A stretch of DNA of 64,000 nt from Escherichia coli (GCA_902500055.1 GCA_902500055.1_4131.1), one strand, 5' to 3'; counted from the first letter of the stretch, positions 12,154 through 14,593 are shown. The notes: generated by a model from the letters alone, not told the origin. Translations and numbers: made by a program.

Positions 12154-12525
12154 TTATGACATACGCTTATTATGAATGGAATTATGAATGGATTTTAAAT
12201 AATTATATAATTTTATCAATCCACTACCAGTAGCTACAAACAGTAGTGCTGTTGGTATCATACATCCAAACATGGTTATTAATTCATGTATTTCCATACC
12301 ATCACTATTTGGTCCCACATCAAATATAACAACCAAAACAACACCTAAAATGCTTAGACAATAATATCCCATAAAGACCATAAAAGTGATATATCCGGCA
12401 CTTGATTTAATATTAGATAACATATTATACACTGGATTAATACAGAAGAAGTATAATAACCATACCAGTGTTCCAGTACTGAACATAATAATTGAAATAA
12501 TGGAAAATATCTCACGGTAACTCAT
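12154..12525 (-). CDS. Small multi-pass membrane protein (cluster A, member 1)
   Basis: Hydrophobic segments; basic C-terminal tail; tandem with paralogs. Confidence 0.6.
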   Translation of the reverse strand: MSYREIFSIISIIMFSTGTLVWLLYFFCINPVYNMLSNIKSSAGYITFMVFMGYYCLSILGVVLVVIFDVGPNSDGMEIHELITMFGCMIPTALLFVATGSGLIKLYNYLKSIHNSIHNKRMS

Positions 12526-12526
12526 A

Positions 12527-12889
12527 TTATTTCCTCATACCCAAACGTTGGTGGATTTCAGAGATCTTTATATACAATAGTACCACAAGGTGCAGTACTA
12601 AACAACATATAATTACGGCTAATACCAATGAACATATCATAAGACCGAAGGTTATTGTATTCAAAGAGGATGTGAACAGTCCAATTATTAATACAATAAA
12701 ACCAAAATTGAATACTGTACCCAACACAGTATATGCTGGACTATATCTCTTTTGGATTACATCATATATATTTGATAATGGTCGCTTATGGAAGTACTTC
12801 CCAATGCACACGAATGCATTCAGTGAGAAGATAAATGTATACGCCATTACTAGTAATTGACCAACGAAAGATAATTCTATCCCGTTCAT
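12527..12889 (-). CDS. Small multi-pass membrane protein (cluster A, member 2)
   Basis: Start trimmed to internal Met to abut next gene. Confidence 0.55.
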   Translation of the reverse strand: MNGIELSFVGQLLVMAYTFIFSLNAFVCIGKYFHKRPLSNIYDVIQKRYSPAYTVLGTVFNFGFIVLIIGLFTSSLNTITFGLMICSLVLAVIICCLVLHLVVLLYIKISEIHQRLGMRK

Positions 12890-12890
12890 A

Positions 12891-13259
12891 CTAACCTCGT
12901 TTACGTTTTTTAATTGTACTGTGCATCTTTTCGAAATAGGGAACCAAAACATATTGAACAGTTTGCCAGATAACCATTAGATTATGCACTGCACCACCAA
13001 GGATACCAAACACTAGAACAATAATTGCCATAATAGGATCACCGTCTACCATACCCCATTTAAAGATATGTAAAATCCAAGCAATGACTAGACAAAATAA
13101 ACTAAGCCAATACGTAATGAAAAATCCGGCTTGTAGTTCATAATCATCAGCAATTTCATCGTATACCGTTTCTAAAAATGATACACAAAAGAATTTACCA
13201 ATTATAACCACAGTACTAATAAACAACATAGCAGTTAAGATAATAAGAGCAATTTCCAT
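12891..13259 (-). CDS. Small multi-pass membrane protein (cluster A, member 3)
   Basis: Hydrophobic ORF, tandem arrangement. Confidence 0.6.
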   Translation of the reverse strand: MEIALIILTAMLFISTVVIIGKFFCVSFLETVYDEIADDYELQAGFFITYWLSLFCLVIAWILHIFKWGMVDGDPIMAIIVLVFGILGGAVHNLMVIWQTVQYVLVPYFEKMHSTIKKRKRG

Positions 13260-13573
13260 TACATCCCTCGTTTACGCTTTTGATTGCGTCTAAATTCTGT
13301 TAGTCCACGGCTAATCGGCGGCATCAGACTACATAAAAAAGTAACAGTTGTTGGTAGTAACATCAAGTCAATCATTGCAGTGTTATCTGGTGGATCAAAA
13401 ACCAAAAAATACACACAAGAAACACTAATAATGGTTGAACCGATAAAAGGAATACAAAATTCTTTTATCTGTTTTTCAACATAATCAAACATCTTGAGTA
13501 CAAATAAAAATCCAACCCAACACATAATGAAATAGAATGAATACAACGTGTAAATCAATGTTACTATATCCAT
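13259..13573 (-). CDS. Small multi-pass membrane protein (cluster A, member 4)
   Basis: Hydrophobic ORF, stop/start abutting. Confidence 0.6.
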   Translation of the reverse strand: MDIVTLIYTLYSFYFIMCWVGFLFVLKMFDYVEKQIKEFCIPFIGSTIISVSCVYFLVFDPPDNTAMIDLMLLPTTVTFLCSLMPPISRGLTEFRRNQKRKRGM

Positions 13574-13911
13574 TAGTACCTCGCATCAGGAACTTTAGCA
13601 CGTAACTTATGAACGACTGGGAACAACAACAAACTTACATATGCAATAGTTGAACCCCAATAGAATACTAATACAATTGGTTCACCATTAGAACGGAAAC
13701 CTCTACTAATCATTGAGTAGTGAATAATAGGCATAATCATCGCCATACCAAACCATGCGTGTAATTTTAATTGCAGCATGTTATCAGCGATGAATACTGA
13801 AATTGGTCGTTTAAAGAACCACATCAGAAAGTAGAATCCAGCACTAATAATATAGTACATGGTACTAACTTTCATATACCACGGCAGTAAATCAATAAAG
13901 TACTCCATCAT
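13573..13911 (-). CDS. Small multi-pass membrane protein (cluster A, member 5)
   Basis: Hydrophobic ORF; C-terminal KVPDARY. Confidence 0.6.
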   Translation of the reverse strand: MMEYFIDLLPWYMKVSTMYYIISAGFYFLMWFFKRPISVFIADNMLQLKLHAWFGMAMIMPIIHYSMISRGFRSNGEPIVLVFYWGSTIAYVSLLLFPVVHKLRAKVPDARY

Positions 13912-14255
13912 TCCTCCGGTATCTTATTTCGAAGTTCAATCATAACACAACAAATTTTAATGGTCAATATAAAAGTTAAACATATCATCCCAAGTGTGCC
14001 GTAAACTGCGGAAAAAGCTGGTAGTACCTTTCCTGTGAGTGTTGCTACAATACATGCAATCAATGTTGATGCAAACAACGATTGATTAATGGCAGAATTC
14101 ATAAAATCTTCACCATTACGTTTATAGAATTGTCGTTTAAAATACCATCCTAGAAACATAACTACCCAAAATGATACATAAGTTGTTAGAATAATCCCTG
14201 CAAGTGAATGTGCAACTGAACTACTCCTTAAAAACTCAAGATAAGCTTCAAACAT
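13908..14255 (-). CDS. Small multi-pass membrane protein (cluster A, member 6)
   Basis: Hydrophobic ORF; C-terminal NKIPEE. Confidence 0.6.
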   Translation of the reverse strand: MFEAYLEFLRSSSVAHSLAGIILTTYVSFWVVMFLGWYFKRQFYKRNGEDFMNSAINQSLFASTLIACIVATLTGKVLPAFSAVYGTLGMICLTFILTIKICCVMIELRNKIPEE

Positions 14256-14593
14256 TAGAAGTCTCCGCGAATTTTATCTCTACCATGAATAATGAGATGG
14301 ATTAAGTATACAACTAACCAAATGAACAACCCAAAGAATACAATATATTGTGAGATTGAGTTCAAGTGAGGATTGGCACAATAAATTAAGTGTGCCATAA
14401 GACCAACAATTGCAAACAAACCTTGAACTAGTGTGTAAAGAACTAGTGATGAATTCCTTACTGGATACAGTTTAAAAACAATTTTCTTTTTAAAATACCA
14501 CAGTACTACAACCAGTGCATGATAAAAGAAAAAACCAAACAGATAAATCAAAGTAATACTAATCATTGTATCTGAATTAAAAAACTCAAGCAT
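14255..14593 (-). CDS. Small multi-pass membrane protein (cluster A, member 7)
   Basis: Hydrophobic ORF; first gene of the tandem cluster. Confidence 0.6.
   Translation of the reverse strand: MLEFFNSDTMISITLIYLFGFFFYHALVVVLWYFKKKIVFKLYPVRNSSLVLYTLVQGLFAIVGLMAHLIYCANPHLNSISQYIVFFGLFIWLVVYLIHLIIHGRDKIRGDF

Follow-up and report, generated by a model that had tools for sequence, protein, structure and literature searches.

Positions 12154 to 14593 of a 64,000-nucleotide (nt) stretch of Escherichia coli DNA (GCA_902500055.1; hereafter the window, from whose first letter all coordinates are counted) are occupied by a run of seven small genes, A to G, all on the minus strand, each encoding a hydrophobic protein of 104–123 amino acids (aa) and each separated from the next by between −4 and +1 nt (Table 1). 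Three similar genes, H, I and J, form a second cluster at 18327–19362. An earlier note on this DNA had drawn attention to both clusters, describing the seven genes as tandem paralogs for multi-pass membrane proteins with short basic tails: the open reading frames (ORFs) lie where it placed them, the genes of the second cluster belong by profile comparison to the same family, and the C-terminal tails that it quoted (NKIPEE, KVPDARY and RNQKRKRGM) are correct. The region from 11400 to 20500 is 96–98% identical to the Asteriusvirus jumbo phages vB_EcoM_CRJP21, phAPEC6, slurp01, SP27, 121Q, PBECO4 and G17, and judged by this identity the window is that of a jumbo coliphage of the 121Q/PBECO4/phAPEC6 type (Asteriusvirus). 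Both clusters and their neighbours share the minus strand within a stretch of 32–37% GC content.

The stop-to-start gaps along A to G are −1, −4, −1, −1, +1 and +1 nt (counting F from 12889), the four nucleotides shared by B and C being ATGA. The longest ORF for F, 12527–12952, would encode 141 aa and overlap E by 62 nt; the ATG at 12889 is most likely the true start, and that at 12952 probably not, because the former has its own Shine-Dalgarno sequence (GAGG) and a 120-aa product is annotated in phages ph0011 and vB_Ec-M-J. The ATG starts of H, I and J are likewise each accompanied by a Shine-Dalgarno sequence. Existing annotation of these genes, deposited as 'hypothetical' or 'membrane' proteins, is uneven: F is unannotated in phAPEC6, an antisense ORF is annotated instead in SP27 and UE-S1, and H is missing from the annotation of phAPEC6 (a gap at 11875–12226 of the phAPEC6 stretch), yet the ORF is found there.

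Table 1. Genes of the two clusters and other features of the locus (dN/dS, ratio of nonsynonymous to synonymous substitution rates; HMM, hidden Markov model; PeSL, promoter early stem-loop)
Feature	Coordinates	Strand	Description	Further details
Gene A	14255-14593	-	112 aa; subfamily 1; tail ...RDKIRGDF	phrog_19454; family HMM E=6.6e-16; dN/dS 0.21-0.23
Gene B	13908-14255	-	115 aa; tail ...RNKIPEE	dN/dS 0.33-0.47
Gene C	13573-13911	-	112 aa; weaker hydrophobicity; tail ...AKVPDARY	family HMM E=8.5e-14
Gene D	13259-13573	-	104 aa; bridges both subfamilies; tail ...RNQKRKRGM	family HMM E=2.8e-21
Gene E	12891-13259	-	122 aa; subfamily 2; IGKFFCV motif; tail ...MHSTIKKRKRG	dN/dS 0.06-0.13
Gene F	12527-12889	-	120 aa; IGKYFHKRP; tail ...IHQRLGMRK	
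Gene G	12154-12525	-	123 aa; last gene of the array; tail ...IHNSIHNKRMS	dN/dS 0.18-0.26
Gene H	19024-19362	-	112 aa; second cluster; tail ...WRSNIPEK	phrog_19285
Gene I	18673-19014	-	113 aa; second cluster; ATG at 19014; tail ...LRDNLPER	
Gene J	18327-18671	-	114 aa; second cluster; ATG at 18671; tail ...LRKNMPNR	family HMM E=1.4e-19
NrdC.10-like P-loop ATPase gene	14661-15434	-	257 aa	conserved upstream neighbour of the array
Predicted sigma-70-type promoter	14623-14651	-	TTGACA-17-TACTAT; inverted repeat in spacer	consensus scan 10/12
PeSL-like stem-loop and promoter	15463-15498	-	terminator-like hairpin 15498-15471 and promoter 15491-15463, which overlap	upstream of the ATPase gene
Perfect palindromic hairpin	12124-12147		CCAGTAC...GTACTGG, as behind the RCC1 genes	between G and the next gene
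ORF of 220 aa, soluble	11449-12111	-	phrog_34359; downstream of the array	dN/dS 0.14-0.16
RCC1-repeat (WD40_RLD) paralog array	1-11468	+	each gene followed by a GCCAGTAC...GTACTGGC hairpin and T-run	

Similarity among the ten proteins is barely detectable in pairwise comparison. Identity ranges from 10 to 25%, most BLAST and phmmer scores are non-significant, and clear matches are restricted to H–I (1e-9), I–J (1e-5) and G–H (4.6e-4 in blastp, over the full length), with A–B and E–G marginal. For this reason we built profiles of ortholog groups, defined in nine genomes by single-linkage clustering of BLAST matches at 1e-6, a procedure that returned one group for each array position and one for H, I and J together. 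When the profiles were aligned with hhalign, seven pairs matched over most of their length: B–C (4e-9), A–B (1.4e-5), B–HIJ (1.5e-5), E–G (8.5e-7, full length), E–F (3e-6), B–D (3.7e-4) and D–E (1.3e-3). Remote homology among transmembrane (TM) proteins is prone to artefacts of composition, and three controls were applied: reversed profiles, other TM ORFs and a six-frame background. Profiles of reversed sequences, which keep both composition and helix layout, reached 0.019 at best; among 359 six-frame ORFs of the window the top non-self matches of each profile were other array members; and a family HMM gave A, C, D and J E values of 1e-14 to 1e-21 and did not match six other small hydrophobic ORFs of the window. 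These six, an ORF designated K and five others described below, were considered as members and ruled out by the HMM and profile searches.

Proteins from metagenomic contigs connect the two halves of the family: one (L011_2627) matches G, D, B and A, and another (L009_2671) matches E, F, G and HIJ. The C-terminal tails are of two types, R-x-K-[IVL]-P-[DE] in A, B, C, H, I and J and H-x-x-I-x-x-KR-x-G in E, F and G, with D between them. That seven of the ten members should stand in one run among 127 genes has a chance probability of p ≤ 1.6e-7. By these profile comparisons the ten genes are one old family with two subfamilies, D being the weakest link. The term paralogs, as used in the earlier note, is upheld by profile-level homology and by the bridging members, though pairwise identity alone, mostly non-significant, would not sustain it.

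Each of the ten proteins has three TM-like segments by Kyte-Doolittle hydropathy, at approximately residues 10–33, 45–70 and 78–102, with basic residues after the first and third, and three TM segments are found in 62 of the 63 family members that were aligned (see below). The multi-pass character proposed earlier, for which topology prediction had been suggested as a check, is thus borne out by hydropathy and by AlphaFold2 alike. C and J are the least hydrophobic of the ten and are missed as three-TM proteins by a strict hydropathy cut-off; membership was on this account judged by homology rather than by hydropathy alone. Lysine and arginine are very unevenly distributed: 62 members have on average 0.73 such residues in the N-terminus and loop 2 versus 7.9 in loop 1 and the C-terminal tail, and by the positive-inside rule the N-terminus is therefore placed outside and the C-terminus inside. 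Hydropathy, charge bias and structural models together predict that the ten are inner-membrane proteins of N-out/C-in topology.

The AlphaFold2 model of E, built on the 63-sequence alignment, has a mean pLDDT (predicted local distance difference test) of 96.6 and a pTM (predicted template modelling score) of 0.83. It consists of TM1 (residues 2–21), a tight turn at GKFFC, a cytoplasmic helix (27–38), TM2 (40–66), a short periplasmic loop and a single long helix (76–121) that combines TM3 with the basic tail; B, from the other subfamily, was modelled with the same helix layout at a pLDDT of 83. Two motifs define the family. At the cytoplasmic end of TM1 stands [ILV]-G-K-[FY]-F, the second Phe of which is invariant (63/63); for membership the pattern was written more widely as [ILV]-[GL]-[KWY]-[FY]-F, and a Tyr follows nine residues past the motif in 40 of the 63. 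Directly after TM3 there is H or R in 62 of the 63 members, then I or L at +3 and K or R at +6: [H/R]-x-x-[I/L]-x-x-[K/R]. Both motifs are found in all ten window proteins. Given the helix layout of the models, the strongly conserved positions would all be found on the cytoplasmic face, next to the membrane; in the TM cores and the periplasmic parts the sequence is, according to the models, free to vary.

The last residues of the tails are subject to a second constraint. Each downstream Shine-Dalgarno sequence of the array (GGAG, GAGG or AGGA) falls within the last codons of the preceding gene, the tails that host such sequences being ...RGDF, ...PEE, ...ARY, ...KRGM, ...KRG, ...MRK and ...PER. 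It is because the Shine-Dalgarno sequences sit in these codons that we regard the array as translationally coupled, and owing to this overlap the very last residues of the proteins answer to two constraints, one on the nucleotide sequence and one on the protein. The basic tail that the earlier note took for a protein feature is consequently one only in part: its final residues are in some measure dictated by the downstream Shine-Dalgarno sequence, whereas the conserved [H/R]-x-x-[I/L], being upstream of the overlap, is a genuine protein motif.

The 67 nt that separate the ATPase gene from A contain the predicted promoter of the array, and this predicted promoter is conserved ahead of the first array gene in phAPEC6, SP27, ph0011, vB_Ec-M-J and JNE01; in three other relatives (the metagenomic contigs L009 and L011 and the GAP32-like contig L014) the array instead begins directly at the stop codon of the ATPase gene. 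No T4-late TATAAATA motif is present between 11000 and 21500. Phages of this group encode their own sigma factor and use the host RNA polymerase. A literature search found no transcriptome for Asteriusvirus or Alcyoneusvirus; transfer of timing from an RNA-seq study of Pseudomonas phage PA5oct was considered and dropped, that phage having no such array.

To establish how widely the family occurs we searched 1.84 billion representative proteins exhaustively with a HMMER profile. This returned 54 clusters at E ≤ 1e-3, of which one, a 570-aa repeat protein, is a false positive; the other 53 are full-length matches of 89–130 aa. Ten remote clusters were traced to metagenomic contigs of up to 350 kb and to phages EJP2 and JNE01. 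The exhaustive search was needed for the wider family: a word-indexed search of 5.8 billion proteins with a mixed profile recovered only 23 close relatives. A tblastn search with A and B of 50,697 phage records matched only Asteriusvirus and Alcyoneusvirus (RaK2, K64-1, Muenster and others), and it also ruled out homologs in the 148-kb phage phi92, at which a 'Phi92_gp233 / gp231' note in ph0011 had hinted. The family occurs in two GAP32-like contigs (L013 and L014) that were found by way of the neighbouring ATPase, and no member occurs in Xanthomonas phage XaC1, in PA5oct or in a T4-like contig. On these searches the family is restricted to RaK2-like jumbo phages.

Databases offered little by way of function. 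In Pfam none of the ten proteins has a match above threshold; across the 63 members no family comes up repeatedly, and neither a holin nor an Imm family appears among their matches at E ≤ 0.1. PADLOC, PDB-sequence and fold searches were without a match, profile searches yielding scattered sub-threshold TM noise, and 'holin' matches in BFVD were non-significant (E 2–4, TM-score 0.2–0.35). The proteins do fall into PHROGs (19454, 19046, 27396, 33258, 26405, 27618, 19285 and phrog_16874, 'membrane protein'), with E values of 1e-51 to 1e-70 to their own groups, F having none; no family protein is given a function there or placed in the lysis category. Where our profiles recover one family, PHROGs has at least seven groups that look unrelated, and misses the unity of the family, its motifs, its topology and its organisation as an array. 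Nor is the family described in the genome papers on RaK2, CBB, UE-S1, Sharanji and fEgEco12 or in the structural paper on phAPEC6; the RaK2 genome paper reports that ~10% of the genes of that phage are paralogs. What is new is the scale of the family, its defining motifs, its link to an NrdC.10-like gene and its restriction to one clade; small phage membrane proteins in plastic regions are familiar.

The conservation in relatives on which the earlier note had hung its proposal is evident: relatives keep the ORFs under purifying selection. Computed against UE-S1, ph0011 and vB_Ec-M-J, dN/dS is 0.06–0.47 for A to G, 0.03–0.28 for H to J and 0.03–0.06 for the adjoining ATPase gene. By this measure the ten genes are real and under somewhat relaxed purifying selection, and the array evolves about twice as fast as its ATPase neighbour; between the window and RaK2, A is 28% and the ATPase 54.5% identical, C being the array gene best conserved at the DNA level.

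The ATPase is ~40% identical to T4-type NrdC.10, for which more than 1300 phage records carry a gene; it falls in phrog_1250 and matches AAA_16 weakly. Its gene directly precedes the array in every relative examined that has the family, that is, in the window, six Asteriusvirus genomes, RaK2, two metagenomic contigs and four IMG/VR contigs. For the family as a whole this adjacency is typical, not absolute, the H–I–J cluster being a second site. A second copy of ATPase and array in GAP32-like contigs was considered and ruled out: the other gene of 254–257 aa is unrelated to the ATPase.

From Asteriusvirus to RaK2 the seven positions correspond to seven separate ortholog groups in an unchanged order. 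Copy number varies: there are seven genes in the window and in phAPEC6, eight in SP27, 121Q, UE-S1 and ph0011 (which have an extra copy of A, designated A') and nine small genes in RaK2, and D is duplicated in JNE01. Of particular interest is the way in which array and flanks differ in their relationships. In JNE01 the ATPase is 98% and ORF K 99% identical to the window at the amino acid level, and the array proteins are only 30–52% identical with saturated synonymous divergence (dS); in vB_Ec-M-J the pattern is reversed, with the array at 63–92% and the ATPase at 60%. Metagenomic relatives whose ATPase is 83–88% identical have arrays that differ in length, order and mix of subtypes. These comparisons show the array behaving as an exchangeable cassette between phages that are otherwise near-identical. 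In XaC1, a related phage of 349 kb (L018, 5980–7952), the ATPase gene abuts convergent RCC1-like genes with no array between them; the array has therefore either been inserted into a conserved junction or been lost from it.

Two alleles of the ATPase occur in Asteriusvirus, one ~97–98% identical to that of the window (UE-S1, ph0011, JNE01) and one ~59–60% identical (vB_Ec-M-J, A4, TH47); their distribution is independent of array type.

The ends of the exchanged segments coincide with stem-loops. On the upstream side, the blocks of homology shared with JNE01, A4 and vB_Ec-M-J have a boundary at 15498–15501, at the stem-loop and promoter upstream of the ATPase gene. At least six copies of this element are present on the minus strand (15473–15500, 20389–20416, 22234–22261, 22996–23023, 26237–26264 and 34693–34720), each an AAAAGG-TTGAC(T/C)-loop-GTCA(G/A)CC-TTTT stem-loop with the −35 box in the stem and a −10 box following; a second such overlap of stem-loop and promoter lies at 20413–20378. 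On the distal side, homology with vB_Ec-M-J starts exactly at 12124, at a palindromic hairpin of a different type. From these breakpoints we infer recombination at stem-loop elements.

Such elements recall the PeSL accessory modules of T4-type hyperplastic regions (Arbiol 2010, PMC2839356; Comeau 2014, PMC4122927). As there, a stem-loop with a sigma-70-like promoter is repeated, breakpoints fall at the elements and the flanked ORFans vary between relatives; the form seen here, A3-4G2-3-loop-C2-3T3-4 / TTGAC, is the nt-1/KVP40 type of PMC4122927. Unlike the T4-type modules, the host phage is a 350-kb RaK2-like phage and the bounded unit is an array of 7–10 genes together with an ATPase gene. 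Tandem arrays of diverged paralogs whose copy number changes between close strains are also known from African swine fever virus (the MGF110 and MGF360 families) and from the terminal families of poxviruses. The likeness, which is one of analogy only, lies in paralog arrays placed in variable regions and changing in copy number among close strains; viruses, hosts and proteins are unrelated, and there is no sign of the rapid accordion-type expansion of poxviruses, since the seven positions are ancient and have stayed stable in Asteriusvirus and RaK2.

What the array does is a separate matter, and the structural and evolutionary description given so far, which we hold with high confidence, is much more secure than any functional inference. 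Of the three functions that the earlier note put forward (superinfection exclusion, holin-like action and membrane remodelling), the holin-like one is disfavoured. The reading that we favour, tentatively and with less than even confidence, is that the array encodes early accessory membrane effectors that serve either to exclude other phages or to neutralise membrane-based host functions. It is prompted by the predicted inner-membrane location, the sigma-70-type promoter, a T7 gp0.7-like kinase gene in the neighbourhood, non-detection in virions, cassette exchange and the existence of ten diverged copies that share a cytoplasmic face. The proteins would be made early and inserted into the host inner membrane without becoming part of the virion. 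Each paralog would act as an accessory factor, its variable membrane and periplasmic parts directed at an inner-membrane target of its own, with a common anchor or partner-binding surface provided by the cytoplasmic face that all of them share. An infected cell could in this way be protected from other phages, by the blocking of DNA entry or of membrane-acting competitors (superinfection exclusion); alternatively, the same proteins could neutralise a membrane-associated host defence or aspect of physiology.

Known exclusion proteins provide the closest functional analogy. T4 Imm, HK97 gp15 and P22 SieA are small inner-membrane proteins of phages, are not virion components and are encoded in variable accessory regions. 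The array proteins resemble them in size, in predicted location and in their variable setting, and by analogy this would be their likeliest functional class. They differ in having no Imm-type Pfam match among the 63 members, in having three TM segments rather than one or two, and in forming a tandem family rather than single genes.

Several considerations weigh against these proteins being early effectors. Searches of Pfam, PHROGs, PADLOC, PDB sequences and folds gave no homolog of known function, and known exclusion proteins are usually single-copy. Early timing is suggested by matches to a promoter consensus, and the region shows no enrichment for promoter-like sites (53, with 46.5 expected from shuffles); the topology, too, is a prediction from hydropathy and the positive-inside rule. 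The virion proteome of phAPEC6 lists gp003–010, gp035c and gp037c and none of gp011c–034c, but absence from the virion is weak evidence because mass spectrometry easily misses small hydrophobic proteins. Finally, the fixed order of the seven ortholog groups and their coupling fit a stoichiometric complex at least as well.

Such a complex, in which the paralogs would be the subunits of one hetero-oligomeric inner-membrane assembly with fixed stoichiometry and a common cytoplasmic partner, possibly the NrdC.10-like ATPase, is the main rival and in our view unlikely. It would account for the seven separate ortholog groups that keep their order from Asteriusvirus to RaK2, for tight translational coupling, which suggests matched expression, and for conservation focused on a single cytoplasmic face; within the clade, moreover, the array always follows the ATPase gene, and the two abut in L009, L011 and L014. 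Fixed stoichiometry is difficult to reconcile with arrays that vary in number, order and subtype mix in metagenomic and GAP32-like relatives, with the duplications A' and D, and with a separate three-gene cluster 4 kb away. As for the partner, T4-like phages, XaC1 and PA5oct have the ATPase and lack any array, and ATPase and array have been exchanged independently of each other (98% versus 30–52% identity in JNE01, 60% versus 63–92% in vB_Ec-M-J). A bolder form of the idea, which we rate as quite improbable, makes the paralogs the membrane subunits of a phage-built, ATP-driven machine, with the GKFF and [H/R]xx[IL] face docking a soluble partner, most obviously the NrdC.10-like ATPase. If this were true, an ATP-driven complex of seven to ten proteins might handle the large genome at entry or expel the DNA of rivals, and docking would be a first function for the widespread NrdC.10 family.

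Much the same doubt attaches to a role in the takeover of host physiology. Here the targets of the proteins would be host machinery of the inner membrane (for division, envelope synthesis, transport or FtsH-type quality control), to be inhibited or redirected, or the membrane itself, to be remodelled, in either case in support of the replication of a 350-kb phage; competition between phages would not be the purpose. An early-type setting beside the gp0.7-like kinase and other takeover-type genes speaks for it, as do the predicted inner-membrane location with its conserved cytoplasmic face and the presence of the family throughout the enterobacterial RaK2-like clade. Replacement of whole arrays and variable copy number are, however, more typical of accessory or arms-race loci; in addition the family is absent from related Xanthomonas and Pseudomonas jumbo phages, and its members bear no similarity to known inhibitors of host membrane proteins.

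That the array supplies holins, antiholins or lysis-timing proteins for the SAR-type (signal-anchor-release) endolysin of the clade is very unlikely. Class I holins of the lambda S105 type have ~105 aa, three TM segments, N-out/C-in topology and a charged, basic cytoplasmic C-terminal tail, and the window proteins match them in each of these features, as predicted. Homologs of T or RI were not found by the authors of the RaK2 genome paper, so that the holin of the clade is not firmly assigned. Unlike class I holins, the window proteins have no similarity to a holin family (neither in Pfam nor, significantly, in BFVD), no adjoining endolysin, motifs of their own, a sigma-70-type promoter among early-type neighbours, and ten diverged paralogs, which is not the pattern of holins. 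In relatives some 80–210 kb separate the array from the SAR-type endolysin and from a weak T4-T-like holin candidate: in 121Q the endolysin is gp532 and the array gp224–232, and in fEgEco12 the lysozyme (Gp275) is at 118 kb, the weak T-like holin at 247 kb and the array at 328–330 kb.

There is, lastly, next to no chance that no biological family exists and that the genes are lookalike hydrophobic ORFs thrown up by AT-rich DNA, or in part non-coding: in its favour are the mostly non-significant pairwise similarity, a GC content of 32% in the region and the lack of annotation for F and H in some GenBank records, but this reading is in our view already refuted by dN/dS well below 1 for all ten genes, by a Shine-Dalgarno sequence for each, by orthologs that reach RaK2 and GAP32-like phages, by profile links that beat reversed controls by 3–7 orders of magnitude, by an HMM that skips six hydrophobic ORFs of the same window, by the Phe that is invariant in 63 members and by the pLDDT of 96.6.

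Jumbo phages of the RaK2/121Q group are under development for therapy, and more than 80% of their genes are of unknown function. At least seven 'hypothetical protein' groups, together with unannotated ORFs, are here merged into one family with a predicted topology, two diagnostic motifs, a confident predicted fold and a genomic grammar of ATPase gene, coupling and cassette exchange. A role in exclusion or anti-defence, if true, would bear on host range and on the behaviour of phage cocktails, and would mean an unusually large arsenal of membrane proteins for a single phage; if the proteins instead assemble with the ATPase, there would be a first entry point to NrdC.10, which is conserved across more than 1300 genomes of T4-like and jumbo phages. 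The overlap of Shine-Dalgarno sequences with tail codons is, independently of function, an example of a nucleotide-level constraint that resembles a protein motif.

Two other kinds of gene were seen within or at the ends of arrays in relatives. The arrays of RaK2 and of metagenomic relatives contain a soluble micro-ORF of 42 aa, MKPEQWIIDDMRRMR...LLTWYVKVLNSKE, at 7170–7295 in RaK2 (L008), 1817–1945 in L009, 1533–1661 in L011, 7736–7861 in L012 and 7754–7879 in L016. It is 69–83% identical among them, far above the array genes, and is unannotated in RaK2; the window lineage has no such ORF, and the N-terminus of window C (FIDLLPWYMKV) weakly resembles the C-terminus of the micro-ORF (E 0.24). 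A different type of three-TM protein, of 93–114 aa and lacking both the GKFF motif and the basic tail, stands at array ends (3200–3508 in L009, 4623–4931 in L011, 4390–4734 in RaK2 and 6779–7060 in L012) and has no counterpart in the window.

Salmonella phages SD-1_S14, SD-6_S16 and SD-2_S15 carry discrete deletions in gene B, with endpoints that differ among the three isolates, and have lost most of the ATPase gene (the equivalents of window 13985–14237 and 14585–15192); their genomes are 25–40 kb shorter. Decay of B and F in these phages was set aside as a sign of dispensability, since the deletions may be assembly artefacts.

Downstream, the soluble 220-aa ORF may, from its strand and spacing, be the last gene of the transcription unit of the array. 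Beyond it the array faces a convergent, plus-strand array of RCC1-repeat genes, which is always found opposite the three-TM array in relatives that have the family, and whose homologs in phAPEC6 (gp003–gp010) are virion proteins. The hairpins behind the RCC1 genes are at 3215, 4455, 5717, 6528, 7716, 8957 and 10234. Imperfect GGT-rich tandem repeats lie inside one of these genes (6188–6440, plus strand) and probably encode a glycine-rich stretch.

Small membrane proteins are generally abundant in the early region of the window. ORF K (16584–16835, minus strand) encodes 83 aa, is very hydrophobic, with a grand average of hydropathy of 1.5 and two to three TM segments, and falls in no PHROG; it is 96–99% identical in all Asteriusvirus genomes examined, even beside neighbour genes that differ. 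Five more small minus-strand ORFs with two to three predicted TM segments are found at 22570–22833, 26801–27178, 27629–27955, 28016–28255 and 37279–37704. Four near-perfect sigma-70 promoters, TTGACA-N17-TATAAT with a CAGTACTG palindrome in the spacer, occur on the minus strand at 17650–17683, 27998–28031, 32308–32341 and 51925–51958; judged by their match to the consensus, these are probably a family of strong early promoters.

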